From contig AP018172.1 of the NCBI GenBank assembly GCA_002368175.1, forward strand, positions 285,599 through 349,598: a stretch of 64,000 bases of DNA. The letters are read 5' to 3'. Positions 41,470 through 58,142 of this stretch are shown one piece after another (position 1 is the first letter of the stretch; each line of letters starts with the position of its first letter). Under the pieces are notes generated by a model. That model was given only the letters and a program-made list of their open reading frames with translations, was not told where the DNA came from and searched no databases. The stretch is from Calothrix sp. NIES-2098. GTDB lineage: Bacteria; Cyanobacteriota; Cyanobacteriia; Cyanobacteriales; Nostocaceae. A program made the position numbers and the translations under genes.

Positions 41470-44400
41470 TCAATTCCTGCCAGCGAGATTGGCAACTACG
41501 GTAACTAATTCTGCGGGATTGACTGGTTTGGGGACGTGAAGTTGAAAGCCTGATAACAAAGCTCTTGTGCGGTCTTCAGCTCTAGCGTAAGCTGTGAGTG
41601 CTACGGCGGGAATTTGTCCTCCTTGCGCTGAAGGCAGGGATCTGAGTTGACGAATGAGTGTATAGCCATCGGCTTCTGGCATACCGATATCGCTCACTAG
41701 TACATCGGGGTGGAATTGGGGGACAGCAGCTAAAGCGTCAGCAGCAGATGCAGCTGTCATAACTTGGGCACCATACTGTGACAAAACTGTGGTGAGTAAT
41801 TGGCGGGCGTCTTGCTCATCATCAACAACTAATATGCGCACGCCTGCAAGTGATGATGGGTTAATTGGAGAAATTTCGCTATCAGTGGGGGGTTCGCTTA
41901 GTGCTGATGTTGTATTCTCTAGATAAACAGCTCGCATCGGCAAGTTAACTATAAAGGTTGCCCCTTGCCCAATTCCAGGACTTTCAGCTGAGACTGTGCC
42001 ACCGTGTAATTCTACCAGATGACGGACGATCGCTAACCCTAAACCCAGTCCGCCATGCGATCGCGTGCTAGAACTATCGGCTTGGCGAAAGCGCTCAAAT
42101 ACATGGGGTAGGAAGTCAGGGCTAATTCCCGCACCTGTATCGCTGACTTGAATTTGAATTTGAGAATTTACGCGTTGCAGTTGCACGGTGACTCTGCCGC
42201 TTTTAGGTGTGAACTTGACAGCATTGGAGAGTAAATTCCAAACGATTTGTTGCAAGCGATTGACATCACCCATCACTATTCCTACTGTTGGGTCAAATCT
42301 GCACTCAATCTGAATTTCTTTCGCATCGGCGGCTGGCTGTACAGTCTCAATTGCTGCTTCGACAACTGGTATGAGTTCTGCTTGCTGGAGATTCAAGGAA
42401 AGTTTACCTTGAACGATCCGCGATACATCTAATACATCTTCAATCAGTTGTGCTAAAGCTTTGGTGTTACGGTTAATGGTTTCTAAGCCGCGCGCTGTAG
42501 TAGCTTCATCAAACTTGCGGTTTCTCAGGAGTTGTGTCCAACCCAGCATGGCGTTGAGAGGGGTTCGCAGTTCGTGGGAAAGAGTGCCCAAAAACTCATC
42601 TTTCATGCGGTTGGCGGCTTCGGCTTCGGCTAATAGTCTTTCGCGTTCTTGCTCTGAGAGTTTGCGATCTGTAATATCAAGCATGAACCCATGCAGTAGT
42701 TGTGGCTTACCCTCACTCCGCACAACATTTACAATGTCATATATCCAGATTACTCTGCCATCTGCTGCTAACATTCTGTATTCAAATTCATAATTATCTA
42801 GTGACAGCGAAGATTCGATACAATACTTAACTGCCCATTCGCGATCCTCTGGGTGGATATGTTCTTCCCAAAAATTATTGCTGTACCAGTCTGTTGATGG
42901 ATAGCCCAGAATCTCTTCTGCTTGCGGCCCTACATAAGTAAAATTTCCCGTACTAACATTCACTTCCCAAGGAATTACACGGACTTTTTCTGTGAGTTTG
43001 CGAAAGCGTTCTTCGCTCTGTTTCAACGCTTCTTGGGCTTGTTTGTTTTCTGTAATATCGTTGATTAAAGCAACAAAACCTTCTACCTTTCCCTGGCGAT
43101 CGAATTGGGGTACATAGGAAACATGCATATAATGTTGTGCACCATCTGGGGCAGACATTGGGGTTTCATAAGTTACTATTTCTCCTGATAATACTGTTTC
43201 TATATAAGGACGAATTGCCTGATAAACTGACTCGCCCACAATATCTTTAACTTGCTTGCCATAAACTTCTGAGGCTTTGATGCCATACCATTCTTCATAT
43301 TTGCGATTATTAAAGCGGTAACGTTGCTGGGCATCGACATAGGAAATAAATACGGGTACAGCATTTGTAATTAATCGTAATTGCTCTTCTTTTTGCCGTA
43401 ATGTTTCTTCTACTTGTTTGCGAGCAGTTAAATCTAAATAAAACGCGATAATTTCTTCTTGCTCTCCTTCATCATTCTGTAATAATGCTCCACCAATTAA
43501 AATTGGAACGCGACTACCATCTTTACGGATGTATTCTTTTTCAAAGGGAGTTGCTACGCCATTTTGTCTGAGTTCTTCAGCGGCATTCTCATCTAAATAG
43601 AGGTATTCTGCTGGTGTCATAACATCCCAGCGCATTTCGCCAGCAACCATATCTGTTAAAGTGTAGCCAACCATATTTAAAAAATATTCATTGGCATAGT
43701 GGATACCACCGTTGAAGTTACTAAAAGCAACACCAAAAATATTAGATTCTACCAGCCTGCGAAATCGTTTTTCACTTCTTCTAATCGCTGCTTCTGCTTG
43801 CTTGCGTTCTGTAATGTTCCGCCAGGCAGAAACTCTCACATTACGACCTTGATAAATAGAGTCTTTGCCGAATATCTCTAAACTAATAGTAGTTTTATCT
43901 TTCTTGAATCCAGTTAATTCATAAGCTGTTTCATATCCAGAATGTATCTTTTCTAAAAGAATATTTTGTAATTCTGGTATTAAAAATTTTGTGAGCGGCA
44001 TACCCATCACTTCATCAATTTCATAGCCAAACATTTTGGCAAAAGCTGGGTTGGCTTCTAAAATTTTGCCATTGTCGTGAATTACAACACCTTCAACTGT
44101 GGCATCAGCTAAAGCAGAAAATCTACTTTGGCTTTCACGCAACTCATTTTCTGTTTGTTTGATAGTAGTTAAATCTAGTACAAAACTGATGACTTCTTCT
44201 AATTCGTTGGTTAATAAGGCAGAACCAATCAAGATGGGAACGCGGCTACCATCTTTGCGGATATATTCTTTCTCAAAAGGCTGATTTACTCCATGATTTC
44301 TTAATTCTGCAACGGCGCGATCGCTAATTTCTTGATATTCTAGCGGTGTCATATCGCGCCATCGCACTCGCCCAGATACAAGTTCCTCCCGCGTGTAGCC

Positions 44401-44850
44401 TACCATTGTTAAGAATGCATCGTTAGCCTCAATAATCGCCCCATTCATATCGGCTACTACTACCCCAATAATGTTAGACTCTGCCAACCTTCTAAATCTA
44501 GACTCGCTGGCTTGTAGCTTCTGCATACTTTTCTCTAGACAGTACTTGGCATTACGTAACTGCGAGTTTAGCCAGCTGATGAGCGTTGTTACTAGCACAA
44601 ACAAGCATAAGCGCAAGATGCTATCTACAGGGTAAATTAAAGGCGAAGATGTAGAAGGAATAAAAAAATATGCGACAGCAATAGTAGCTAAAACAGTAGC
44701 CAATAAACCTGGTTTCATCCCGCCATACCAAGCACTCACCGCTACAGCAGCAAAAAATAGCAAGAAAATTGTTTGACTGAGCAATGGCTGTAACAGTATT
44801 GTCAGTAGTAATGCGCTACCAACTGCCAATACCGCTACAGCATAAGGCAT
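41470..44850 (-). CDS. multi-PAS/PAC hybrid sensor histidine kinase with C-terminal receiver
   Basis: N-terminal TM helices, four or more PAS/PAC modules, [14 protein letters not shown]-box, HATPase, and a C-terminal REC (ILVVDDEQD...DIGMPEADG). The likely ATG is at 44850; the track ORF starts at TTG 44922. Confidence 0.8.
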   Translation of the reverse strand: MPYAVAVLAVGSALLLTILLQPLLSQTIFLLFFAAVAVSAWYGGMKPGLLATVLATIAVAYFFIPSTSSPLIYPVDSILRLCLFVLVTTLISWLNSQLRNAKYCLEKSMQKLQASESRFRRLAESNIIGVVVADMNGAIIEANDAFLTMVGYTREELVSGRVRWRDMTPLEYQEISDRAVAELRNHGVNQPFEKEYIRKDGSRVPILIGSALLTNELEEVISFVLDLTTIKQTENELRESQSRFSALADATVEGVVIHDNGKILEANPAFAKMFGYEIDEVMGMPLTKFLIPELQNILLEKIHSGYETAYELTGFKKDKTTISLEIFGKDSIYQGRNVRVSAWRNITERKQAEAAIRRSEKRFRRLVESNIFGVAFSNFNGGIHYANEYFLNMVGYTLTDMVAGEMRWDVMTPAEYLYLDENAAEELRQNGVATPFEKEYIRKDGSRVPILIGGALLQNDEGEQEEIIAFYLDLTARKQVEETLRQKEEQLRLITNAVPVFISYVDAQQRYRFNNRKYEEWYGIKASEVYGKQVKDIVGESVYQAIRPYIETVLSGEIVTYETPMSAPDGAQHYMHVSYVPQFDRQGKVEGFVALINDITENKQAQEALKQSEERFRKLTEKVRVIPWEVNVSTGNFTYVGPQAEEILGYPSTDWYSNNFWEEHIHPEDREWAVKYCIESSLSLDNYEFEYRMLAADGRVIWIYDIVNVVRSEGKPQLLHGFMLDITDRKLSEQERERLLAEAEAANRMKDEFLGTLSHELRTPLNAMLGWTQLLRNRKFDEATTARGLETINRNTKALAQLIEDVLDVSRIVQGKLSLNLQQAELIPVVEAAIETVQPAADAKEIQIECRFDPTVGIVMGDVNRLQQIVWNLLSNAVKFTPKSGRVTVQLQRVNSQIQIQVSDTGAGISPDFLPHVFERFRQADSSSTRSHGGLGLGLAIVRHLVELHGGTVSAESPGIGQGATFIVNLPMRAVYLENTTSALSEPPTDSEISPINPSSLAGVRILVVDDEQDARQLLTTVLSQYGAQVMTAASAADALAAVPQFHPDVLVSDIGMPEADGYTLIRQLRSLPSAQGGQIPAVALTAYARAEDRTRALLSGFQLHVPKPVNPAELVTVVANLAGRN

Positions 44851-45558
44851 AAGTCGGCGGATGGTTCCTTTCAAAGTGGCGTCTCCTGATGATGCAGCTA
44901 ACTGAAGGGAATGTTGCCACAATTAGCTAAAAAAGTGATTGCTTAACACCTATTTTGCCTTGAATAAATAGCTAAGTAAATAATCAGTTTTTGCAAATCT
45001 ATCTAAAGTAGTAAAAACTAATATCACAGATTTAATTAATATTGTTATATATCTCGATGATTTATGAAATTTTCTTGATATTTTCTACCTTGGTGTTATC
45101 CATTGTGGTAATCCTTCCAGCGATGTAGTTACTGCGATTGGGCAAAGTTACCAAAACCTCTGTTTGACTGCTCTGTGTCTAGATTGAAAAAGTAATTTTG
45201 ACAACATAGATAAGTTAGCTATCTCAGCCACTAAATTTAGGCTAATTTATAATTTTGAAACAATAATATACATACCTTAAGTTTTAATTGTTTTAGTAAT
45301 TGTTGGGCAGCAGGATAGACTAATTCACAACTTTCAAACCCTATGTTTTCGCCGGCTAATTTAATAATCAGCTAAGAAGAATTGTGCTGGTATTGAATTG
45401 GTATAAATTGCTGAAGATATATTTTGACTACGGTTCATACCTAAAATTCCTGATAGGAATATCAATTTGCCCAGCTATTCACCCACAATCAAAAGAGTAT
45501 ATGCGTACATTTTGCGCTATTAGTAATTAAATGTGAAAACGTTGGGAGAAAGCTCTAC

Positions 45559-47094
45559 ATGGCTCGCACCCCTACATTAACTTTCGATCGCGGTACACTG
45601 ATACTGCATCCACCACCACGCGGTAAAGCCTGGATGGACTATGCCACTTGGGACGATAGAGTGGAAAAATTTCGGATGCCTGCAATTCAATATCGTTCTT
45701 TAGTGGAAGCACTGCAAGCGGAAGAAGTTAACTTTATTGATGAGGCGAAGGAATTTTATCCTTTAGATTTGGTTGCAACTTTGGAAATGGAACCCTATCC
45801 CCACCAAAGTGAGGCTTTAGCAGCGTGGAAACTCGCAGGAAGACAAGGAGTAGTAGTGCTTCCGACAGCGGCGGGAAAAACTTATTTGGCACAAATGGCG
45901 ATGCAAGCCACACCGCGCACAACGCTAATTGTTGTTCCAACTTTAGATTTGATGCATCAGTGGTATGCACATCTGGTAGCGGCGTTTCCCGATGCGGAGG
46001 TGGGTTTGTTGGGAGGGGGTTCCAAAGATAAGACACCAATTTTAATTGCCACTTATGATAGTGCAGCTATTCATGCGGAAGCCTTGGGAAATCAATATGG
46101 TTTGTTGATTTTCGATGAATGTCACCATTTACCAACTGATTTTAATCGGGTAATTGCAGAATATGCGATCGCACCTTATCGTTTAGGACTCTCAGCTACC
46201 CCAGAACGCACCGATGGCAAACACGCTGATTTAAATATTCTCATTGGCAGAGAAGTATATCGCAAACGCGCTGAAGATTTAGCGGGGAAGGCGTTAGCAG
46301 AACATGAAATTGTCCAGATTAAGGTGAAATTATCCCAACACGAACGGGAAAAATACAACGAGTTAATTCAACTCCGCAACGATTTTTTACGAGAATCGCG
46401 GATTTCGTTGGGAAGTATTCAAGGTTGGCAAATGTTTGTGCAGATGAGTGCGCGATCGCAATCTGGTCGTAGGGCAATGTTAGCACACCGCGAAGCTAAA
46501 GAAATTGCCTTGGGTACGGATGGGAAGTTGCGCATTTTAGCTAATTTATTGGCGAAGCATTATCCTGAAAGAATTATTATTTTTACGGCTGATAATGCGA
46601 CTGTTTACCGCATTTCTCAGGAGTTGTTAATTCCGGCTATTACTCATCAAACACCTGTAAAAGAACGGCATGAGATATTAACTAAGTTTCGGGAGGGTGA
46701 ATATAATACCTTAATTGCTTCTCATGTGTTAAATGAAGGTGTTGATGTGCCAGCAGCTTCAATTGCAATTATTTTATCTGGGACTGGTTCAACTAGAGAA
46801 TATATTCAACGTTTGGGAAGGGTGTTGCGGAAGGGGAATGTGGAAGGGAAGCAGGCGATATTATACGAAGTGGTGGCTGAAGATACGAGTGAGGAAAGAA
46901 CTTCGGCGCGGCGTAGGGGGATGGAAAAGAGTAACGAACCGCCAAGACGCGAAGGACGCCAAGGGAAGAAGGAAAAGAAAGGACATTTGCAAGTTGTGTA
47001 TGGAACTGGGAAGGAAAAAAGTGCTAAGGCTGCGGAACAGTTAGAAATCAATTATTCAACTAAGCGCAGTGAAGATTCATCTGATTTAACATAG
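45559..47094 (+). CDS. XPB/ERCC3-like superfamily-2 DNA helicase with a low-complexity K/R/E-rich C-terminal tail
   Basis: Walker A VVLPTAAGKTY, DECHH box (FDECHHLPT), and motif VI QRLGRVLR. The XPB-like N-terminal damage-recognition region is present. The tail from about aa 440 is low complexity. Confidence 0.7.
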   Translation: MARTPTLTFDRGTLILHPPPRGKAWMDYATWDDRVEKFRMPAIQYRSLVEALQAEEVNFIDEAKEFYPLDLVATLEMEPYPHQSEALAAWKLAGRQGVVVLPTAAGKTYLAQMAMQATPRTTLIVVPTLDLMHQWYAHLVAAFPDAEVGLLGGGSKDKTPILIATYDSAAIHAEALGNQYGLLIFDECHHLPTDFNRVIAEYAIAPYRLGLSATPERTDGKHADLNILIGREVYRKRAEDLAGKALAEHEIVQIKVKLSQHEREKYNELIQLRNDFLRESRISLGSIQGWQMFVQMSARSQSGRRAMLAHREAKEIALGTDGKLRILANLLAKHYPERIIIFTADNATVYRISQELLIPAITHQTPVKERHEILTKFREGEYNTLIASHVLNEGVDVPAASIAIILSGTGSTREYIQRLGRVLRKGNVEGKQAILYEVVAEDTSEERTSARRRGMEKSNEPPRREGRQGKKEKKGHLQVVYGTGKEKSAKAAEQLEINYSTKRSEDSSDLT

Positions 47095-47145
47095 TTAGCA
47101 ATTCAAACTTTCTGCGCCTCTGCGCCTTTGCGCGATCCAAATCCC

Positions 47146-48360
47146 ATGTTACCTACAGAACTACTAATGCACCGCCACAATGGCGAAGAAATCATCCCTA
47201 AAAGATTAAAGATTGACGATAAACATTTAAATTTAGCTAATGAGTTAATCAATTATTTTCAAGCAGCTGTTGGTAAAACTCAGGGGATGCTTGAACGCCA
47301 ACTGGCAGATTTTGAAGGAGATACCACAGATTATCGTGTCAAACGGGGTTTAGCTTATATTCTTAAAAGCAGTTTTTGTACTTTTGAGGTGGTGAGTCCT
47401 CTAGAACCGCCAATGTTAAGAGAAAGGGTATTTGCGCTATCTGCTAAATCTGCTCCTAGTAAAGAAGCAACACAACTTACTTTGAGTAAAATAGCTGATG
47501 AATTAACTCATGAACTTGAGCGAGAAATTTTACCGCAACAGGTTATTGATGGACTGTATGCTGATTTAGCTGAAAACAAAATTTTAACGGTTTTTGATGC
47601 ACCCACAGCGCAAGATTTATTGCATCGATATAATTTATCGCAAGTGCAGGGAGTATTTTATAAAGCTAGCCAATTAATATTAAATGCGCATCGCAATGTT
47701 CCGGGAGAATATAAGCTGTTATTTCGCTATTTGAAGTTATTTCAATTGATGGCTTATATTGAGGGTGATGCCGACCACGGTTTTACAATTACCATTGACG
47801 GGCCGACGAGTTTATTTAATCCTAGTACGCGTTATGGGTTGGCGATCGCTAAACTTATCCCCGCTTTACTCCACGTGACTCGCTGGAGTCTTTCTTCGAC
47901 TCTGCAAACTCGCGACGCCTACACCAATACCTGGAGAACGGGACGTTTTACCCTCAATTCCGAATGTGGTTTAGTCTCGCACTATTCTCCAGGTAAACCC
48001 TACGATAGTATGTTAGAAGCATCCTTCGCTGATAAATGGGATGCGCTCAAAAGTGAATGGGCATTAGAGCGAGAAGTTGATTTAATTCCGATTCATGGGA
48101 GTGTGATGATTCCCGATTTTCGCTTAGTGCATCCTGATGGTAGAAGTTTTCTCTTAGAAATTGTTGGTTATTGGCGTCCAGAATATTTACAAAAGAAATT
48201 TTCTCAGGTGCGACGTGCTGGACGCGACGATTTAATTTTGGCGATTTCTGAACGATTGAATTTAGAAAAAGCTGGGGTGAAATTAAATGATGTCCCGGCG
48301 CGAATTATTTGGTTTAAGGATAAATTATTGCCGAAATCTGTGTTAGCAGTAATGGAGTAA
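47146..48360 (+). CDS. DUF790 / Bax1-like nuclease (XPB partner)
   Basis: Gene directly downstream of the XPB-like helicase. Its size of about 400 aa and the N-terminal MLPTELL... are typical of Bax1-family proteins as I recall them. The start is taken at ATG 47146; the track ORF begins at TTG 47128. Confidence 0.5.
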   Translation: MLPTELLMHRHNGEEIIPKRLKIDDKHLNLANELINYFQAAVGKTQGMLERQLADFEGDTTDYRVKRGLAYILKSSFCTFEVVSPLEPPMLRERVFALSAKSAPSKEATQLTLSKIADELTHELEREILPQQVIDGLYADLAENKILTVFDAPTAQDLLHRYNLSQVQGVFYKASQLILNAHRNVPGEYKLLFRYLKLFQLMAYIEGDADHGFTITIDGPTSLFNPSTRYGLAIAKLIPALLHVTRWSLSSTLQTRDAYTNTWRTGRFTLNSECGLVSHYSPGKPYDSMLEASFADKWDALKSEWALEREVDLIPIHGSVMIPDFRLVHPDGRSFLLEIVGYWRPEYLQKKFSQVRRAGRDDLILAISERLNLEKAGVKLNDVPARIIWFKDKLLPKSVLAVME

Positions 48361-48377
48361 TGTTAGCAATAATCAGC

Positions 48378-49073
48378 TTACAAATCCCAATATTTTTTAC
48401 GCCGCCAATACTCAGCAACTCTTGTTTCCCATTGCTCCCAATAATATTTAATCGTATCCGTTTCTAACCAAAAAACCTCTGCCGACATCTCAGGAATCGC
48501 CACAACCAACAACGCATGATTTATCTGAATACCAAAATCTCCATAATATTTATTTGCTGCGCCTATGTATGCTGCAAGTTGCAGGGGATGTTCGTACAAA
48601 CGCTCAATTGCACCTTTAGGTTTGTCAGATGTTTTCCACTCACAAACACAGGGTATACCTTGATAGCTAGCAATACAATCAACCTTGCCAGAATACTTTA
48701 AATCATAGTGAAAAACAGAGCCTTCAACGAGTCTAATGGTATTAATTTCTTGTAAGACTGGCTTGATACTTTCCCAATAAGGACGACTGGCTTCGGAACA
48801 AACAGGATTTTCACCTAGAAGATAGCGTTCAATTTGCTTGTGTGTCTTCGTTCCCCGACGACTAGCAGCAGTAGTAATGCGAGATGCTTCTTCTGTACCA
48901 ACACGCGCCTTCCAGTTTATTAGGCGATCGCGATCGGCTTGGGGTTTAGTGGCGTTTAGTATAGTGGTGACGCTAGGGAGGCGATTTCCAAGCTCATCCA
49001 TATAATATTGTTTGCCATTTTCTCTCAGAGATTTGGCATTAATACGTGGTAAAAGTTGGATATCAAATGGCAT
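48378..49073 (-). CDS. PD-(D/E)XK nuclease superfamily protein (RecB/Cas4/lambda-exonuclease-like)
   Basis: Motifs VDCIASY ... CEWKTSDK (D ... E-x-K) followed by QLAAY (QxxxY). Confidence 0.55.
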   Translation of the reverse strand: MPFDIQLLPRINAKSLRENGKQYYMDELGNRLPSVTTILNATKPQADRDRLINWKARVGTEEASRITTAASRRGTKTHKQIERYLLGENPVCSEASRPYWESIKPVLQEINTIRLVEGSVFHYDLKYSGKVDCIASYQGIPCVCEWKTSDKPKGAIERLYEHPLQLAAYIGAANKYYGDFGIQINHALLVVAIPEMSAEVFWLETDTIKYYWEQWETRVAEYWRRKKYWDL

Positions 49074-50074
49074 TAGTAATTGGTAATTAAGAAAGCCTTG
49101 AAAAACTGAAGTTAATATTGAGCGATCGCTAATTTTAATGAATTAGTAATGAGTTAACGCAATAAGTCTAGCACTACTTCTCCACCAGGGAATGGCAAAA
49201 CCAAAAAGTTTGGGAAACTATTGCGTTGGATGAGTTTCCCTGCTTGCTGTACTACAAAGCAGAACAGTAGCCCTGCGCTTAAGCGGTGTTAGCGTTTCCC
49301 TAGCAGAATAGGCTTCCTAGCTATTTAATATCGCTATGAATTTACGTCTCTTGATATAGATAAAATCCTCCAGAAGAGGGTTTTAATTATTATTGTTAAT
49401 AATTTGATCGCTTTTTAATTACTATGAATTTAATAATAAAAAGTTTATTAACAAAATAATGAATTCTCCTTGGAAAAATCCTTTACCACTAGAAAAATAC
49501 TCGTCAGAACGAGTTGTTATCTACTTCCACAATAATCAACAATGGGTGCCAATTAAATACTGTTATCTATTAAAAGCAGTTGAACTTTACCAAAAAACAA
49601 TAAATTTATCAGGCAAAGAAGTTTTCATATTTCCTCCCGATTTAGATCCTAATAAATTTAATTAATGGTCTTAAATTTTACTATTATTAGTTGGTCTTTA
49701 GCGCTTTTTTTAATTTATTATCCTCTGAATAAACTAAGAAAAATTTGAGATTAAGCTCAATATTTACAATTTATATTTGCTTAGATACACTCAACAAGTT
49801 GTCGCTATTAGCAAATTTTCTTAACAAGATTTCGCAAATACACAAGCGACAAGGCGATCGCGAGTGCCTAACTATGATAATGAGCAAATACTAACTTTTG
49901 CAAAGAGACAGAAATTTACGTAATTATATGGTTGCTATATGTAAAATTTACAGATGAGCATGGTGATAGGTTAATACCATGTTGGATTCTCGATTTTAAA
50001 TCCTAGATTTTGCTCAGTTTCTTAATGATTATTTAAAGATTTCCAATTATCGTTAAATTGACATAGATCGTGTT

Positions 50075-50545
50075 ATGCCTAATTCATCGTTTATAGCTTC
50101 CAGCCAGAAAAATGCTCCAACCAAGCGGGATGTGAAGCAGGTTCCGTTTGTTGAGTTATTTAATCATCGCGTCCAGGGAGTAGTTTCTAGCGGTTCTGAT
50201 ATTGAACGGGTTTACGTTTCTTTTTTTGAAGCAGGAACGTTAGATTTTTATTGCAGTACAAATAACAATCGTCCTTGCGGTGGTTTGGGAGGCTATCCCT
50301 GCAAACATTTACAAGCTTTGATGAAAGAAGCGATCTCAGCTTACGGTATTGACCAAGTAATTAATTATCTTAAGGTTCCTGGCGACCTCAATCAAATTAC
50401 CTCCCCCCAGGATATTCTCAACCGTCGCGGTACAGTCAAAAAAGAACCAGCCAGCGAAGTCTTCAGCCGCTTTTTAAACTATCTCCGCTACCTAGAATTA
50501 CAAACCTCCAACTCTCCTCTCCCTGAAATGAGTTGGTTTGTTTAA
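50075..50545 (+). CDS. SWIM zinc-finger domain protein
   Basis: YCSTNNNRPCGGLGGYPCKHLQAL fits the CxC-x(n)-CxH SWIM signature. Confidence 0.55.
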   Translation: MPNSSFIASSQKNAPTKRDVKQVPFVELFNHRVQGVVSSGSDIERVYVSFFEAGTLDFYCSTNNNRPCGGLGGYPCKHLQALMKEAISAYGIDQVINYLKVPGDLNQITSPQDILNRRGTVKKEPASEVFSRFLNYLRYLELQTSNSPLPEMSWFV

Positions 50546-50583
50546 TCATCGTTAGCTTTAATTTTGAATTTTGAATTGTAAAC

Positions 50584-51972
50584 ATGGCTTTCCCCGGCGC
50601 ATTGCATCAATTAAGTGAAAGCAATCAAGAAATATTCGAGTTGATTGCAAGTTTAGATGAGTGTTTTATTACTGGCTTTGCGAATTTAGATGAGCAACAT
50701 TTACAAACTTTACAGGCTTTGGGGCGTGTATTTACTGGCACGCCTCTACAACAATCTTTAGCTGATGCGACTGCGGCAATTACTACAAATGAGTTTGTAG
50801 ATAAGCATTTTGCTGTGTTGGCAAGTACACGAGCAGCTATACAAGGTGCAATATTTGATACTTTACTATCTCAGGCGAGGAGTTTGTTAGGACGGAAAGA
50901 AATAGCTGATATAGAGTTAGACTATGAAGCCAGCGAAGCGCCAAATAACGTCAAAGTGCTGTTAGCAAGTGTGCGTCACTGGTTAATGGAAATTGCTTTA
51001 ATCGGTTATGCACGTTTAGATATCGCCACTTTGGTTCCGTTTTTAGGGACTCTGGAACAAATTCAAGCGGAACCTTTATTAGTTAGACAAGCTGCTTTAC
51101 TGACTGGCTATTTTAATGAATTGATGCGCAATCTTCCCGTCGCTGATAGTGCAGCAATACCTAAATATCGTTGGGTTGATTTGTGGACTCAGGCGATGTT
51201 AGGCACTGTATGCCCAGCTATTTTACCGCAATCGTCTTCAATATCGGGAAATTTAGAAATTTTAGGTTTAGATTTACGCCAACACGCCAATTTAGTTAGT
51301 TTCATCGCCTATGGGTTGCTAAATGCAAACAATCAAACTCAACTAGTGCGAGTTAGCCAGTCAGCTTACAAGGTAGATGCAATTAATAATGAGCAAATTT
51401 GGCTGTTATTTCCCAATGCGGCGGTGTTATTAGATGCGTTTGCACAAAACCGGGTATTGCAGATTCAAGATGTACCTTTGCTACCTACCGGAGATTTATT
51501 GTGGCAAGGTCAAGGCGAACTTGGTCAAAATTATAACTTGATGAAGCGGGCGGCGGAATTTTTTGCTGAGAATACAGGTAATAACTTGATTTATTCTACA
51601 GTCGCAGCGTGCGATCGCCATCCCATCCAAATCGCGGAACCGATATATCTCAGTAATTATCAAGTCGTCAAAAATGACGAGAATCTTCTTTTAAGTTGGG
51701 GTGATGCGGGTGAACTCAGCATTGCTAGCGAACGTATCAGTAATTTATCAGAACTAAATTTAGACATAATCGCCAAATCTCAGCAAATCTTCGGTTTATT
51801 GCGCTTCGATGCGGGTAAATGGTCAGTCCAACCTTTAGCAGTAGCAGTAAAAAACAAAATCACATCTACCGGACAAACCGCAGCGTCAGTCATTGCGAAG
51901 AAAGATTCCATTAAAAATAGCGTTGTCGGAATCTTGCAAGAACGTTCTAGCAGACTACTGCGTAAGGGTTGA
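50584..51972 (+). CDS. hypothetical protein (no recognisable domain), member of the SWIM-VWA-MoxR cluster
   Basis: 462-aa ORF on the same strand, tightly spaced with its neighbours. I recognised no motifs. Confidence 0.5.
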   Translation: MAFPGALHQLSESNQEIFELIASLDECFITGFANLDEQHLQTLQALGRVFTGTPLQQSLADATAAITTNEFVDKHFAVLASTRAAIQGAIFDTLLSQARSLLGRKEIADIELDYEASEAPNNVKVLLASVRHWLMEIALIGYARLDIATLVPFLGTLEQIQAEPLLVRQAALLTGYFNELMRNLPVADSAAIPKYRWVDLWTQAMLGTVCPAILPQSSSISGNLEILGLDLRQHANLVSFIAYGLLNANNQTQLVRVSQSAYKVDAINNEQIWLLFPNAAVLLDAFAQNRVLQIQDVPLLPTGDLLWQGQGELGQNYNLMKRAAEFFAENTGNNLIYSTVAACDRHPIQIAEPIYLSNYQVVKNDENLLLSWGDAGELSIASERISNLSELNLDIIAKSQQIFGLLRFDAGKWSVQPLAVAVKNKITSTGQTAASVIAKKDSIKNSVVGILQERSSRLLRKG

Positions 51973-51981
51973 GGAAAAATC

Positions 51982-53409
51982 ATGGATACAGAACAAATTG
52001 CTCAACGCCGTCAAGTTGTATACTGGCGCTTACTAACGAGTATGTTTGGCTTCAGCGAACAGGGTGCAAATTTTGAACAAATGGCGACGGAAGTTGTCAG
52101 CGAGTTAAATTTACCCCCATTAATCCTCGACCCTAATATTAGTATTGAAAATTTACTGCACCGCTACCCAGAATTAGAGGCAGATTTTAATCATCCCATA
52201 ATTCCCGAAGACGACACAACACCGGAAGCAGAAACCGCCACCCTACGCCGAGGCTTAGTTTTCTCTAAATTACTCCTGAATGCTTTCGGCCCCAACACCC
52301 AAACCGGAGTTGTCACCGCGCAACAATACGCGCAATGGCTAAAAGATGTGGGATTTTTAGAAAAAGCTTTGGGATGTCAACCAGGAAGTTTACGCGGACA
52401 TGGGCCGGGAATTGGGAAAAATCCTGGACAGCAAAATCAAGGACAAGGTAGCAGTCAAAGTGGCGGTATGGGTGCGGGTTTAGGTACTGGTGGCGGTTTC
52501 ACCATTACCGAAGAACAACTGCGCGCTACCCTGAAAGCTTTAGAAGGCGAATTAATTCACCGTATGGCTTTACACGAAGTCCTCAAAGACGACAGGTTAG
52601 CCAGTCAACTTACACCATCAATGGCTTTGGTGGAACAGCTATTACGAGAAAAGGCGAATTTATCAGGAAATGCGCTGAAAAATGCCAAACGGTTAATTCA
52701 AGAATATGTAGACGAACTCGCGCAAGTTTTGCGATTACAAGTCGCGCAAGCTGTCGCCGGCAAAATTGATTATTCAGTTCCACCAAAAAGGATATTTCGC
52801 AACTTAGATTTAAAGCGGACAATTTGGAAGAATTTAACTAATTGGAATCCAGAAGAACAGAGGTTATTTGTTGATAGATTGTATTACCACCATACAGCCA
52901 AGAAAAAAACACCAACTCGCATGATTGTAGTAGTTGACCAATCAGGTTCAATGGTGGATGCGATGGTGCAATGTACAATTCTCGCGTCAATTTTCGCCGG
53001 ACTTCCCAATGTAGATGTGCATTTATTAGCGTTTGATACGCGAGTCATTGATTTAACAGCTTGGGTACATGACCCCTTTGAGGTTTTATTACGAACTCAA
53101 TTAGGTGGAGGGACGCATATTTATGCGGCGTTAGTGGAAGCGGCACAAAAGATTTTAGAGCCAAATAATACAGCGATGGTGTTAATTTCTGATTTTTATG
53201 AAGGTGGTAGCGACCAAGTTTTATTTGATTATATTAAATCGTTGAAAGAGTCGGGGTTGCATTTTATTCCCGTGGGTGCGGTGACAAGTTCTGGCTATTT
53301 CAGTGTGAATCAATGGTTTAGGGATAAGTTGAAGGAGTTGGGGATGCCGATTTTAACAGGGAGTCCGAAGAAGTTAATTCAGGAGTTAAAAAAGGTGATA
53401 GTAACTTGA
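51982..53409 (+). CDS. von Willebrand factor A (VWA) domain protein with a Gly-rich linker
   Basis: C-terminal MIDAS motif VVVDQSGSM plus downstream T and D residues. A GQGSSQSGGMGAGLGTGGG linker precedes it. Confidence 0.7.
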   Translation: MDTEQIAQRRQVVYWRLLTSMFGFSEQGANFEQMATEVVSELNLPPLILDPNISIENLLHRYPELEADFNHPIIPEDDTTPEAETATLRRGLVFSKLLLNAFGPNTQTGVVTAQQYAQWLKDVGFLEKALGCQPGSLRGHGPGIGKNPGQQNQGQGSSQSGGMGAGLGTGGGFTITEEQLRATLKALEGELIHRMALHEVLKDDRLASQLTPSMALVEQLLREKANLSGNALKNAKRLIQEYVDELAQVLRLQVAQAVAGKIDYSVPPKRIFRNLDLKRTIWKNLTNWNPEEQRLFVDRLYYHHTAKKKTPTRMIVVVDQSGSMVDAMVQCTILASIFAGLPNVDVHLLAFDTRVIDLTAWVHDPFEVLLRTQLGGGTHIYAALVEAAQKILEPNNTAMVLISDFYEGGSDQVLFDYIKSLKESGLHFIPVGAVTSSGYFSVNQWFRDKLKELGMPILTGSPKKLIQELKKVIVT

Positions 53410-53457
53410 AAAATATTTATTTTTTAACACACAATTCTTTCTCATTCTTCTTCTTTG

Positions 53458-53523
53458 TGACCTTCGCGCCTTCGCGGTTCGTAAAAAAATAAACCACGAA
53501 GACGCGAAGAACGCGAAGGGAAG
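53458..53523. repeat. GC-rich imperfect hairpin repeat (intergenic, after the VWA gene)
   Basis: CCTTCGCGCCTTCGCGGTTCG - AT-rich loop - CGAAGACGCGAAGAACGCGAAGG. A related copy lies at 54748-54830. Confidence 0.55.
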
Positions 53524-53565
53524 AGAGTTTAAGAGAGATTTTACATTAATTATTAGGAGATAAAA

Positions 53566-54720
53566 ATGGCAAAGGCTAAAAGTAATACTACAAGTAGCGA
53601 GACTAAAGATAATACTGTCATGCTGCGCCAACCAGCCGAATTAAAATATGCAGAAGAATTAGAATATTTAGCCTCAATTGATAAAGGTACAAAACCCTTT
53701 TCTTGGCGACTGTCGCCGCAAATGGTACGCACCTTTGTATTAGGAAGTACCCCATCGCAAAAATTAGACCACCAAATTGAACAGAAATGGTACGGAGATA
53801 GTGCGATCGCAGAACGTGCTATTGTCACTTTAGCTTCTGACCGGGGTTTACTCTTAATTGGCGACCCCGGTACAGGTAAAAGCTGGTTAGCAGAATTACT
53901 TGCAGCAGCAATTTCTGGGAATTCCACCTATGTAGTTCAGGGAACTGCGGGAACAACAGAAGACCAAATTAAATATTCTTGGAATGTGGCGATGGTAATC
54001 GCATCTGGTCAATCCCGCGATTCTTTGATACCCTCACCCATTATGACAGCCATGCATAGCGGTGCAATGGGCAGATTTGAGGAATTGACACGCTGTACTT
54101 CCGATGTGCAAGATGCACTGATATCCATACTGAGTGAAAAGTATATTTCCATTCCCGAACTAAAGATAGATAACGTAGCTTTCGCACAACCCGGGTTTAA
54201 TGTCATCGCCACAGCCAACAGCCGCGACAGGGGTGTCAATGAACTTTCTTCAGCGTTGAAACGGCGGTTTAATTTCGTACATATGCCTGTGGTGACGAAT
54301 AAGAAACAAGAAAAAGAAATTATCCTCTTCCGCACCAAGGAATTAATGAATCGTCACGGCTTTGAAGTGGATGTTCCGCCAACATTATTAGATGTATTAT
54401 TGCAGACCTTTGCCGACTTACGCGAAACCAGCGCCGCCGCTAGTTCCGACGACCAGCGTTTAGAATCGGCGCTTTCTACAGCCGAACAAATCGGTGTGTT
54501 AGAAGATGCAATTTTACACAGCCGATATTTTGGTGCGACTAATTTAGAAGCGGGTGCATTAGCTAAATCATTAGTCGGTACTTTAGTACGTCGTCAACCA
54601 GAAGATATTTCTGTGATGAATCAATTTTGGCACGCCGTTGTAGAGAAGCGCAGTCAAGAATACAAAGGTGAATGGGAAGACTTTCTCGAAGGTGGGAAAC
54701 AAGCGATGGGGTTATTTTAA
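53566..54720 (+). CDS. MoxR-like AAA+ ATPase
   Basis: Walker A LLLIGDPGTGKSW, Walker B and sensor region NVIATANSRD, and arginine finger SALKRRF. A GGAGA ribosome-binding site precedes the ATG. Confidence 0.7.
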   Translation: MAKAKSNTTSSETKDNTVMLRQPAELKYAEELEYLASIDKGTKPFSWRLSPQMVRTFVLGSTPSQKLDHQIEQKWYGDSAIAERAIVTLASDRGLLLIGDPGTGKSWLAELLAAAISGNSTYVVQGTAGTTEDQIKYSWNVAMVIASGQSRDSLIPSPIMTAMHSGAMGRFEELTRCTSDVQDALISILSEKYISIPELKIDNVAFAQPGFNVIATANSRDRGVNELSSALKRRFNFVHMPVVTNKKQEKEIILFRTKELMNRHGFEVDVPPTLLDVLLQTFADLRETSAAASSDDQRLESALSTAEQIGVLEDAILHSRYFGATNLEAGALAKSLVGTLVRRQPEDISVMNQFWHAVVEKRSQEYKGEWEDFLEGGKQAMGLF

Positions 54721-54747
54721 GCATTACGCAAAAACCTCTCAAACTCT

Positions 54748-54830
54748 TCCTCCTTCGTGTCCTTCGCGCCTTTGCGGTTCGTTTCTATCTTTTATTCTCA
54801 CGCAAAGGCGCAAAGACGCAAAGAAGAACT
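54748..54830. repeat. GC-rich hairpin repeat (intergenic, after the AAA+ gene), same family as 53458-53523
   Basis: CCTTCGCGCCTTTGCGGTTCG - loop - CGCAAAGGCGCAAAGACGCAAAG with a perfect 11-bp stem GCGCCTTTGCG / CGCAAAGGCGC. Confidence 0.55.
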
Positions 54831-54856
54831 CCAAATATTTGGAAACTTCCTAAACT

Positions 54857-57679
54857 ATGAGCCTACCCACTGCATTCAACGCACTCCAAGAACAACTCCT
54901 CAACGCGGCGGAAAAATTCGCTACTGATGCACAACCATTAAGCGAAATGCTAACCGCTTTAATCAAAGATGTAGAAAAAGCCAGCAGCGAACCCCTAGAA
55001 ATTTTCCCCGTATGTCACCATTCCCCATCCTCCGCTTTACAAATGGTGCGACGGTTACGGGAAAAACCGCCGAAAGTCATCTACTTAGAACTATGCGAAG
55101 ACTTACAAAACACCGTGGAAAATTTACGTGATTGTAAATTACCCGTCGCTTTACAAGCCTTCGCTGCCGAATCTGAGCATTTTTCGCCCAAAATCATGCC
55201 TTTGAGTGTGGTTGCACCTATAACTGAAGCTTCCGCAGAATATCAAGCGATCGCATTTGCACTCCAACACCCCGACACTCAATTAGTCTTTGTCGATCGC
55301 GCTGTTGATTTTGTCTTTCAATGGGAACCTCCTGATAAAAAACTGGCTGAAGAATCTGAAGAACCCGCCAGCGATGAAGCGAAAATGCATGGTTCGGCGG
55401 TAGGTGTAGAAGTAGGTAACCTCGTCCCCACTTTTGACCAATTTTTAAGCTTTTTACTCCGCAACTCCAATACTCGCCACTTTTCGGAATGGTGGGATGA
55501 GTATGTAGAAACAGCAATTATCGGCGCAGACTACGATACTTACCGCCAAGTCATGTTCCTCATCGGTAGCTTAATGCGCCGCTTAGGAACTCGCAACAAA
55601 GATATCGAAATCGACCGCCAGCGCGAACGCTATATGTGGACTTCCATGAAAAAACACATGGCGGCACATAATATTGCACCTGAGGAAGCTATCTATATAT
55701 GTGGTGCAGCGCACTCTGCTAGTGATGTAGAAGAATACAGCGTTACTAATAATAATCTCTGGGAAATCCCGGAACGCACCCAAACTAAATGGTTATATGG
55801 TTTAATTCCTTCCAGTTTTGCGGCTATTGAATACCAATTTCATCACCCGGCGGGTACGGTATCGCTAGCAGAAGCGACTTGGAAAAAAAATCTCAAGGTT
55901 ACAGGCTTAAAAGGATTTTCGCTCAATAAAGAAGAGAAAGCAACTAAAACTAAACCAAGTCCTGTTACAGCCACCAATTCCACTCTCGCAGCCTTCTTAA
56001 CTCGTCCCCCAGAATTAGCTAAAGCCGATACCGAACAATTATTGCAATGGTGCGCTGATATTGTCGGATTAGCACGTAAAAATGCCTATTTAGCGAGTAC
56101 CGCTGACTCTATCGCCATTTATCAAACCTCAATGTTGCTAGCGGGGATGCGGAACCGAATGCACCCCACACCTTACGATTTCCAAGATGCAGCCATAACT
56201 TGTCTCGAAAAAGACCGCACTCCCAAAAAACGCAATATTTACCAACTTTGCCAAATTTTACTCGGAGGCGATCGCATTGGTACGGTTGGTTACGCTTCTT
56301 TACCTCCCCTAGCGCAAGATGTGTATGACAGACTTCAACCTTTAGGAGTCAACCTACTTGCACAAACCAACCAACGCGCCTTAATGGATTTCAAGCAGCA
56401 ACCGGAACTTTTACCATGTTCGGATGTGCTGTGGCGATTGCATTATTTGTTGGGTGATACGATTGTCAAACCCATTATGGGCGATCGCAGTCTTGGTTCC
56501 AAACCGATTCAAGAATCTTGGGAAATTCGCATCGGTAAATACCAGCGCCATCTCATTATGCTTGGTTATGAAGGTGTCAGCATCGAGCAAGTTTTAGAAC
56601 AGCGTCTCAAACAAACAGCTTTCTCTCCCCAAGCCAAAACCAGCGATGTTCTCAAAGCCACAGAAGATAGTATTTTATACGCACGCAGCCTCCGCTTAAC
56701 GCAAGAACTCGGAGAACACGCGATTTCTCTCCTCAAACAAGAAACTGGTGTCAGCGATGCACCCCAAGTATTTGAACGAGTCCGCAGGTTAGTCCATTAC
56801 TACCGCGCCACACCCACAGGCTTACCACAATGGATAGAGCGTTTTGTTACTACAGGCTACGGACATTACGCTACCTTACTACCCCAAGCCTTTGCAGATA
56901 GGGGAACTACACCCGAACAAATCGCCGGGATGCTAAATTTTATCTTCACCCTAGAAAGTTTGGCGCTATCTCTCGGTTGTAACCGCAGTCAATTATTAAT
57001 CGGTGTCAAACAATCCAGCCAAGGGTTAGACGACCCCGCCAAAATAGGTTTATTGTGGACAACCGAATGGTTACTAACATTAAGAAAATTAGAAGAAATT
57101 CGGGAATTCTTCAATGATGTAATTAACAACGAAATGTTAATTAAATCTTTCCCCGAATACTTAAATGGGTTTATTTTATCTTTAACATTTGCACCCAGAA
57201 TTAGTAAATTTGTCGTCGAACTGTTGAGTAAATTATTCGCCACAGTTCCCGATAAAATTTTATTACCTTGGCTACCCAGTCTGATTCTCAAACTGCGACC
57301 CCATGCTCAAATCTTGCAAGCATTAATCAAAGAAGGCTCAAGTAATTTCCCGAAAAATTTAGCTGGCTTTAATAGCTGGGTTCCCGCCTGGTCAAAACCG
57401 CAAGCTGAAATTAAAGAACAGGTCAAACAAGTCGAGGCTGTACCAACACTCAGCGAAAATGAGTTAAAAATCCGAGAATTTGTGTTTAATTCTCCAGCCA
57501 CAACCAATGCGCTAGCTAAACTACTTGGTATTGAAAATTTAACTTGGCAAGAAAATTTAGAAGCAAAGATAAATTTAAGCGATCGCTTATCTGAAAAAGA
57601 GCTAAAAATGCAAGAATTAATTACTACTCATCCAGCTACATTAAACTACTTTGCTGGCATGATTAATTCAACATTTTGA
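54857..57679 (+). CDS. large hypothetical protein (940 aa), terminal gene of the SWIM-VWA-MoxR cluster
   Basis: Long ORF with good coding potential and no domain I can name. The C-terminus contains two degenerate copies of about 35 aa (SENELKIREFVFNSPATTNALAKLL / SEKELKMQELITTHPATLNYFAGMI). Confidence 0.55.
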   Translation: MSLPTAFNALQEQLLNAAEKFATDAQPLSEMLTALIKDVEKASSEPLEIFPVCHHSPSSALQMVRRLREKPPKVIYLELCEDLQNTVENLRDCKLPVALQAFAAESEHFSPKIMPLSVVAPITEASAEYQAIAFALQHPDTQLVFVDRAVDFVFQWEPPDKKLAEESEEPASDEAKMHGSAVGVEVGNLVPTFDQFLSFLLRNSNTRHFSEWWDEYVETAIIGADYDTYRQVMFLIGSLMRRLGTRNKDIEIDRQRERYMWTSMKKHMAAHNIAPEEAIYICGAAHSASDVEEYSVTNNNLWEIPERTQTKWLYGLIPSSFAAIEYQFHHPAGTVSLAEATWKKNLKVTGLKGFSLNKEEKATKTKPSPVTATNSTLAAFLTRPPELAKADTEQLLQWCADIVGLARKNAYLASTADSIAIYQTSMLLAGMRNRMHPTPYDFQDAAITCLEKDRTPKKRNIYQLCQILLGGDRIGTVGYASLPPLAQDVYDRLQPLGVNLLAQTNQRALMDFKQQPELLPCSDVLWRLHYLLGDTIVKPIMGDRSLGSKPIQESWEIRIGKYQRHLIMLGYEGVSIEQVLEQRLKQTAFSPQAKTSDVLKATEDSILYARSLRLTQELGEHAISLLKQETGVSDAPQVFERVRRLVHYYRATPTGLPQWIERFVTTGYGHYATLLPQAFADRGTTPEQIAGMLNFIFTLESLALSLGCNRSQLLIGVKQSSQGLDDPAKIGLLWTTEWLLTLRKLEEIREFFNDVINNEMLIKSFPEYLNGFILSLTFAPRISKFVVELLSKLFATVPDKILLPWLPSLILKLRPHAQILQALIKEGSSNFPKNLAGFNSWVPAWSKPQAEIKEQVKQVEAVPTLSENELKIREFVFNSPATTNALAKLLGIENLTWQENLEAKINLSDRLSEKELKMQELITTHPATLNYFAGMINSTF

Positions 57680-57728: not shown

Positions 57729-58142
57729 TCAAAAATCCTCCAAACCTACTGTCATAAAGCGTTCGATTATCGGATCGATTTCTGCTCTTAATTCCTTGCT
57801 AAAATCCGATTCTGCTCTTAATTCCTTGCTAGAATCTGATTCAATAACCTCAGTCTGACGCTCAATCTTTTGTTCAACTGGCTGAGAAATTGATTTTACT
57901 GGCTGTGGTGGCTCTTCACTCACAGCAATTACAGGAACCGAAGGCGGTAGCGATTGCTCTGACGATGGTACGTGAGATTTGGACTTGAGTTGCGTAAGTT
58001 GTGTAGTTGCACCCAGTCCCAGCATTGCACCAGCAACTGTAAACATTGCAGTCTGATTCAAGTATTGAACGCCCAAATATCCCAGTGCGATCGCAGATAC
58101 TGTGGCGGTGATGCTTCCCATGATAACTTGCTGTTGTTTCAA
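57729..58142 (-). CDS. hypothetical small membrane-anchored protein with a Pro-rich segment and a tandem decapeptide repeat
   Basis: N-terminal TM helix, PPSVPVIAVSEEPPQP, and the repeat SDSSKELRAE / SDFSKELRAE encoded by a 30-bp tandem DNA repeat. Confidence 0.35.
   Translation of the reverse strand: MKQQQVIMGSITATVSAIALGYLGVQYLNQTAMFTVAGAMLGLGATTQLTQLKSKSHVPSSEQSLPPSVPVIAVSEEPPQPVKSISQPVEQKIERQTEVIESDSSKELRAESDFSKELRAEIDPIIERFMTVGLEDF
57770..57840. repeat. 30-bp tandem direct repeat, about 2.2 copies
   Basis: The unit TTCTGCTCTTAATTCCTTGCTA(A/G)AATC(C/T)GA is seen twice, plus a partial copy. Confidence 0.7.

Follow-up and report, generated by a model that had tools for sequence, protein, structure and literature searches.

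A widespread five-gene MoxR-VWA-DUF5682 operon of Calothrix sp. NIES-2098, a predicted distant variant of the Escherichia coli YehLMPQ-type system

Introduction

In a 64,000-nt window of the cyanobacterium Calothrix sp. NIES-2098 (contig AP018172.1, forward-strand positions 285,599 to 349,598; coordinates below are positions within this window unless a locus is named), five tightly spaced genes at 50075-57679 form a real, strongly conserved operon that has been inherited across phyla as a unit. The genes encode two proteins that we call P1 and P2, a protein with a VWA domain, a MoxR-type AAA+ ATPase and a protein of the DUF5682 family. Judged by homology, the cluster is a distant variant, or sister branch, of the YehLMPQ-type system of Escherichia coli. 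Operons of this kind, which combine a YehL-subfamily MoxR ATPase with VWA and DUF5682 proteins, are already known and functionally blank; what is new here is a distinct and very widespread five-gene branch with a P1-P2 module, its anatomy at the level of individual residues, and a candidate catalytic domain.

Seven subfamilies of MoxR were named in 2006, YehL among them (PMC3893208). The literature that we searched offered no functional study of YehL, mentioned the yeh genes only in expression and genome reports, and contained neither a mention of DUF5682 nor a pairing of the domain and gene terms that describe the operon (VWA_CoxE, AAA_5, PF18934, PF05762, YehP). An earlier note on the same DNA had singled the cluster out as the best candidate for an undescribed functional system, which holds insofar as it is a conserved and uncharacterised MoxR/VWA system, and fails insofar as its kind is known as the counterpart of E. 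coli yehLMPQ.

Results

The five genes lie on the + strand as open reading frames (ORFs) separated by gaps of 38, 9, 156 and 136 bp, exactly where the earlier note had drawn five co-directional genes. We searched the window proteins against Pfam, NCBIfam and PADLOC v2.0.0. A profile search with P2 detected relatives in 410 of 185,579 species genomes, and an exhaustive P2 search gave 324 clusters at 50% identity. From the 410 matching species genomes we fetched 80 loci, called their ORFs and used the window proteins as queries; counts of loci given below refer to this sample. In nearly every locus that was long enough, the order P1-P2-VWA-AAA-DUF5682 is kept, far beyond what chance would produce. 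This synteny spans at least seven phyla (Cyanobacteriota, Chloroflexota, Myxococcota, Planctomycetota, Desulfobacterota, Actinomycetota and Bacteroidota), with loci in filamentous cyanobacteria, in Herpetosiphon and Anaerolineae (Chloroflexota), in Nannocystis and Chondromyces (Myxococcota), in Singulisphaera and Gemmataceae (Planctomycetota), and in Desulfococcaceae, Moduliflexus and some metagenome-assembled genomes of Pseudomonadota. The nearest homologues are found in Nostoc, Calothrix and Tolypothrix, with identities of up to 96%.

The boundaries of the conserved unit are sharp. In several relatives with about 90% DNA identity, homology starts at 50073 and stops at 57671, matching the borders of the cluster exactly, and no sixth conserved gene was found beyond the genus level in the 80 loci. 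Likewise, no lineage has a conserved gene for a client enzyme up to 10 kb away from the cluster. Plasmid-borne copies occur in Streptomyces fungicidicus, on a 927-kb plasmid (L083) where the cluster adjoins an N-6 DNA methylase gene, and in Fulvitalea (Bacteroidota), on a 62-kb plasmid; both carry generic annotation only, and the Streptomyces copy bears out the statement in the earlier note that a similar neighbourhood recurs without an assigned function in actinobacterial annotations. A search for phage-borne copies found none. At its borders we detected neither direct nor inverted repeats flanking the cluster, nor any tRNA or Rfam family, and promoter- and terminator-like sites occur at chance level. 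The cluster had also been described as lying in AT-rich DNA, which applies to the spacer upstream of it (49-50 kb, GC content 0.31) but not to the cluster itself, whose GC content of 0.40-0.46 is typical of the window.

Three of the five proteins connect the operon to E. coli. The ATPase (384 aa, 53566..54720, +; AAA_5, PF07728, 2e-37) is 38% identical to E. coli YehL over 366 aa, its full length (E=6e-83); the VWA protein (475 aa, 51982..53409, +; VWA_CoxE, PF05762, 2.9e-35) is 31% identical to YehP (E=1e-52); and the 940-aa protein (54857..57679, +) matches Pfam PF18934 (DUF5682) at 1.1e-27, scoring 97.2 bits against a cut-off of 26. E. coli YehM is itself a DUF5682 protein (2.4e-98), and its BLASTP alignment to the window protein covers the N-domain only (E=2e-6), making the two divergent homologues. 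Since these three proteins are homologous to YehL, YehP and YehM, we assign the ATPase to the YehL subfamily. YehL homologues were detected in 69 loci, and homologues of WGR proteins, DUF4132 proteins and YehQ in none of the 80.

The core of the operon, a MoxR AAA+ ATPase and a VWA protein, has the anatomy that the earlier note had read from it, and its motifs are close to invariant. The ATPase carries a Walker A motif GDPGTGKS (G99-S106), a Walker B motif R170-F-E-E173, a sensor-1 residue N218 and an arginine finger formed by R233-R234, all of which are kept in 69 of 69 homologues. It is about 72% identical between Nostocales and Streptomyces or Bacteroidota. The VWA protein consists of an N-terminal region, a Gly/Gln-rich linker (residues ~140-172) and a C-terminal VWA domain with an intact metal ion-dependent adhesion site (MIDAS) of sequence VVVDQSGSM (D319-x-S321-x-S323, T378 and D404), whose residues are present in 71-73 of 73 homologues. 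The catalytic residues of the ATPase and of the MIDAS are thus conserved, and both activities are predicted from them. PADLOC returned only weak generic matches for the two proteins (mad8, 1.2e-5; TerY, 8e-4).

The DUF5682 protein had been taken for one of two large proteins devoid of recognisable domains. Its predicted architecture comprises an alpha/beta N-domain (residues ~45-320), an alpha-solenoid (~480-830) and a C-terminal tail. The N-domain holds a constellation of His, Glu, Asp, Cys and Arg residues (H54 H55 S56 P57, E78, C80 E81 D82, D147, H178, R256 E257 and C282-G-A-x-H286) that is invariant among homologues and stays invariant when YehM is included; these residues are candidates for a catalytic role. 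The TraB/GumN/TIKI/erythromycin-esterase superfamily is characterised by paired GxxH motifs, a conserved Glu and Arg, and an alpha/beta fold. A TraB/TIKI-like hydrolase fold is possible for the DUF5682 N-domain, and for this domain alone the TraB/GumN/PrgY/TIKI/erythromycin-esterase superfamily is a candidate relative. The tail (residues ~866-936; 57452-57664) contains two tandem copies of the motif LSxxE(x5-7)LLxxxPxTTxALAxxLG, with a low-complexity linker between them, and one or two copies are found in most DUF5682 homologues. These repeats have the look of a helix-turn-helix, a reading that we set aside as it found no support in Pfam. That the Glu of the tail repeats docks at the MIDAS is speculation.

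Neither P1 (156 aa, 50075..50545, +) nor P2 (462 aa, 50584..51972, +) has a match in any of Pfam, NCBIfam and PADLOC, at thresholds as loose as E<=10, so that of the two large proteins described as domain-less P2 remains so. P1 contains a Cys3His motif, C60-x7-C68-x7-C76-x-H78, together with the motifs GVVSSGSD, TNNNR and FSRFL, which are invariant in an alignment of 31 homologues. The four putative ligands are kept in 71 of 75 sequences and are lost jointly in the remaining 4, which suggests that they form one metal site. P1 had been called a SWIM zinc finger with a CxC...CxH signature. We rejected this assignment: the CxCxnCxH signature of PF04434 is absent, the Pfam cut-off of 19.6 bits is not reached, the SWIM model does not match P1 at E<=10, and among the homologues only 2 of 31 match it, at E~0.05. 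By its motif, P1 may be termed SWIM-like at best. P2 has a predicted helical-bundle domain at its N-terminus (~1-210) followed by a beta-rich domain (~218-430). No other component of the operon evolves as fast: the median identity between phyla is 40% for P2 and 75% for the ATPase, the least variable component.

In at least one metagenomic contig, P1 and P2 form a single polypeptide (P0351, 719 aa; L082, 6298-8457), in which a WGR-like N-terminus and a linker precede P1 (hhalign E=3e-50) and P2. The WGR match scores 21 bits, under the Pfam cut-off of 22. The genes for VWA, AAA_5 and DUF5682 proteins then follow, giving a four-gene version of the operon. In Mastigocoleus testarum (L023 and L024, 8904-9966), two tandem P1 paralogues stand ahead of P2; two contigs carry the whole locus, with the same coordinates and scores on both, reflecting either a duplicated region or assembly redundancy.

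We also asked how P1 and P2 relate to YehQ, the fourth component of the E. coli operon. The two proteins occupy the equivalent slot adjoining the VWA gene and sum to 618 aa, compared with 614-672 aa for YehQ. A P1-YehQ profile comparison gave E=0.46, and P2 showed a weak C-terminal match to the YehQ profile (59 columns, E=1.3e-3, probability 19%). BLASTP and hhalign returned no significant similarity for P1, and we accordingly discarded the idea that P1 and P2 are a split YehQ, retaining only that they fill the same slot and are possibly very distant relatives. Based on this slot, the YehQ-like summed length and the P1-P2 fusion, we file the cluster as a YehLMPQ variant in which YehQ would have been replaced or have diverged beyond recognition. 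In E. coli, yehLMPQ (L001, 9597-15945) is present in 5353 of 5426 complete genomes (98.7%), with 934 genomes in the 90-95% identity band. Among predicted proteins YehQ ranges from 614 to 709 aa, with frequent truncations and fusions to YehP, a variability that suggests above-average divergence or decay of this component.

The spacers of the operon carry features of more local distribution. An imperfect palindromic element that would form a long hairpin lies between the VWA and AAA genes (53441..53527, +; RNA fold of -40.2 kcal/mol, z=-5.7), and a second copy lies between the AAA and DUF5682 genes (54750..54826, +; -30.1 kcal/mol, z=-5.2). The two elements share a 33-nt repeat with two copies in the 64-kb window, where none is expected by chance. 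Only a few close relatives among the Nostocales carry the palindromic element, which is thus probably a small palindromic insertion or one resembling a miniature inverted-repeat transposable element, and the elements are probably lineage-specific and not core to the system; they might affect mRNA processing. The AAA-DUF5682 spacer (54721-54856) is an insertion hot spot: it measures 136 bp here, ranges from 0.1 to 1.8 kb among relatives, and reaches 0.76-1.77 kb in several relatives of about 90% identity (L002, L006, L011, L013 and L014; 1,458 bp in L006 and 1,772 bp in L014). Outside the cyanobacteria, most spacers measure from a few bp up to a few tens.

The neighbourhood of the cluster varies between lineages. 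Upstream in the window, 45559-49073 holds a separate module of an XPB-type helicase (XPB_DRD; matching the PADLOC PbeA model at 1.1e-53), Bax1/DUF790 (1.7e-156) and a divergent PD-(D/E)XK (Cas4-like) nuclease. The genes of this module are not found beside the cluster in any relative, and nothing is conserved upstream of ~49323. Farther upstream, 41470-44922 (-) encodes a 1150-aa hybrid histidine kinase (DUF4118, multiple PAS, HisKA, HATPase_c and receiver domains). In 14 loci, histidine-kinase genes lie no more than 10 kb from the cluster, as members of a generic family with no fixed position. Directly downstream, at 57729-58142 (-), lies a 137-aa ORF with no Pfam match, which seven close Nostocales relatives also have beside the cluster. 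Within this ORF, at 57780-57839, a 30-nt unit is directly repeated in tandem with 93% identity, and genes with DUF1400, HD-domain and SMC_N/AAA_23 matches lie farther downstream. In the Herpetosiphon group (L046, L052, L055, L056 and L057), about two ADP-ribosylglycohydrolase genes per locus lie ~0.6 kb upstream of P1. In five loci of the Myxococcota type (L043, L047, L048, L050 and L064), a DEAD-box helicase gene lies directly downstream, and four loci have a gene for a HATPase_c protein directly upstream. The ADP-ribosylglycohydrolase, DEAD-box helicase and HATPase_c neighbours may be lineage-specific accessories.

Discussion

Combining these observations, we propose that the operon encodes a self-contained, ATP-driven protein-remodelling system of the YehL/YehP/YehM type, in which P1-P2 replace YehQ and DUF5682 is the most likely client, an interpretation to which we give about even chances. 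By analogy with RavA-ViaA, CbbQ-CbbO, NorQ-NorD, CoxD-CoxE and BchI-BchD, a ring of the YehL-type ATPase would bind the VWA protein, whose MIDAS metal site would grip a client encoded in the operon, most likely DUF5682, by one of its acidic residues. ATP hydrolysis would then remodel, load with metal or unmask the N-terminal, possibly TraB/TIKI-like, hydrolase domain that DUF5682 carries on its alpha-solenoid scaffold, and P1, with its Cys3His knuckle, and the fast-evolving P2 would supply recognition of a target or signal. We consider DUF5682 the most probable client because outside the operon there is no conserved client gene, and because the unit moves intact between genomic contexts and onto plasmids. 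A more specific possibility is that the operon represents an unrecognised class of self-contained, ATP-gated effectors: DUF5682 would be a latent TraB/TIKI-type metallo-hydrolase or protease on a solenoid scaffold, switched by the MoxR-VWA pair through a P1-P2 sensor of an invader, damage or developmental cue, spread horizontally among multicellular, large-genome bacteria, and related to the H-NS-silenced YehLMPQ. We regard this stronger version as rather improbable.

The earlier note had instead placed the cluster in a defence or conflict island. An anti-phage or conflict system would have P1-P2 sense an invader, the MoxR-VWA pair act as a nucleoside triphosphate (NTP)-dependent switch and DUF5682 serve as the effector, for example as a latent protease or hydrolase that causes growth arrest. 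Several observations are in keeping with such a role, including the patchy spread of the cluster over the 410 species genomes with a bias to large-genome filamentous or social bacteria, the plasmid copies in Bacteroidota and, beside a DNA methylase gene, in Streptomyces, the confinement of homology to the cluster while its flanks vary, the very high cross-phylum identity, which is compatible with horizontal transfer, and the fast evolution of P2. In addition, E. coli yehL and yehM are silenced by H-NS (PMC3686432), TIR, CHAT or NsnA-like genes occasionally flank the cluster, and MoxR-vWA pairs take part in threat sensing elsewhere (PMC7159879; PMC13622651). However, no PADLOC model matches P1, P2 or DUF5682, none of the five proteins contains a recognised effector domain, and strong conservation, not diversification, marks the components. 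Nor is defence content consistent in the flanks: in a PADLOC scan of 126 flanking ORFs from about 38 diverse loci, from which a size limit left out the longest ORFs, no PADLOC family recurred in more than 3 of the 126. The XPB-Bax1-nuclease module, which had been read as the sign of an island, is specific to this genome and missing even from relatives with about 90% DNA identity; phage-borne copies were not found; the operon lacks the hallmarks of vWA-MoxR-VMAP ternary systems; and in E. coli the counterpart belongs to the species core, unlike strain-variable defence islands. Because of the evidence from PADLOC, effector domains, flanks, VMAP features, conservation and E. coli, we consider defence a live rival and not the best-supported one, possible though unlikely. 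Since the two large proteins were not found to be housekeeping partners of the cobaltochelatase or NorQ/NorD kind, which is where the earlier note had looked for evidence against itself, the defence reading stands unproven, not refuted. A physiological or stress function with conditional expression would account for the evidence no less well than a role dedicated to phage defence.

Two further explanations draw on the relatives and neighbours of the operon. The five proteins could act as a maturation or metal-insertion chaperone for an unlinked metalloenzyme, as CoxD/CoxE, NorQ/NorD, CobS/CobT and BchI/BchD do for theirs; Pfam places the VWA domain in its CoxE-like family, the characterised MoxR-VWA pairs are all maturation or activation factors (PMC3893208), the invariant Cys/His clusters of P1 and DUF5682 could handle metal, and a species-core counterpart in E. 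coli would suit such a role. Yet the client enzyme gene that it calls for is not conserved within 10 kb in any lineage, the matches to NCBIfam equivalogs fall far below their cut-offs (GvpN, 44.9 against 266.8 bits; ViaA, 16.3 against 500; MadB, 43.3 against 475), and the five genes move jointly onto plasmids and into unrelated contexts, which argues for a client inside the operon, so that we find this explanation quite improbable. Alternatively, the cluster could work with repair-type proteins in a system linked to nucleic acids or DNA damage, where the zinc knuckle of P1 and the WGR segment of some fusions would bind DNA or RNA. In this case the helicase, Bax1 and nuclease genes immediately upstream in the window would be meaningful, as would the WGR (yehF) and DUF4132 (yehH/yehI, MolR-like) genes that yehLMPQ follows in E. 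coli (L001, 1475-8912), given that WGR and DUF4132 proteins are reported to be inducible by DNA damage, that one of each is up-regulated on DdrO depletion in Deinococcus and that E. coli MolR has been called a member of the LexA regulon (PMC8533742). The WGR-like segment of the P1-P2 fusion, the DEAD-box helicases of the five Myxococcota-type loci and the ADP-ribosylglycohydrolases of Herpetosiphon point the same way. None of these neighbours is conserved past one lineage, however, WGR and DUF4132 proteins, like YehQ, have no homologue in the 80 loci, the WGR match of the fusion stays below its cut-off, and no nucleic-acid-binding domain was detected in the five proteins; we judge this account very unlikely.

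Against these alternatives, the protein-remodelling interpretation can be set beside the systems that it most resembles. The earlier note had pointed to NTP-dependent ternary conflict or signalling systems, and the vWA-MoxR-VMAP systems (Kaur, Burroughs, Iyer and Aravind 2020, PMC7159879) do share with the operon a MoxR AAA+ and vWA core with large partners, and an enrichment in filamentous or social bacteria with large genomes. The present operon differs from them in having no VMAP, beta-propeller, effector-associated, caspase/CHAT or TIR domain, and its components are highly conserved, not diversifying. Its ATPase scores 17.9 bits with the bpMoxR model PF20030, where the cut-off is 27, and has YehL as its best relative, so that membership does not hold. 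The paper describing these systems covers no clusters of the SWIM, YehL, DUF5682, WGR or DUF4132 type (PMC7159879). With RavA-ViaA, CoxD-CoxE(-CoxF), NorQ-NorD and CbbQ-CbbO the operon has in common a ring-forming AAA+ ATPase and a MIDAS-bearing VWA cofactor, here of the CoxE-like Pfam family; the maturation pairs among them adjoin or act on a known client enzyme, whereas here none is conserved outside the operon.

The closest likeness is to E. coli yehLMPQ. The gene order is L-M-P-Q in E. coli and P1-P2-VWA-AAA-DUF5682 here, the DUF5682 protein has 940 aa compared with the 759 aa of YehM, and YehQ carries two canonical CxC...CxH SWIM fingers where the present operon has two proteins of 156 and 462 aa instead. 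The WGR gene yehF and the DUF4132 genes yehH (a pseudogene) and yehI, which precede yehLMPQ, have no equivalent beside the cluster. If the role of the system is physiological, a function would be assigned to a near-universal E. coli operon, and if it lies in conflict or programmed death, the operon would represent a new MoxR-VWA effector architecture. In either case, a block of hypothetical proteins becomes a testable machine, with clear mutants to make and a tractable E. coli relative that shares its AAA_5 MoxR ATPase, a VWA_CoxE protein with the same MIDAS motifs, a DUF5682 protein with the same invariant N-domain residues, and a fourth component of ~615-670 aa in total beside the VWA gene.

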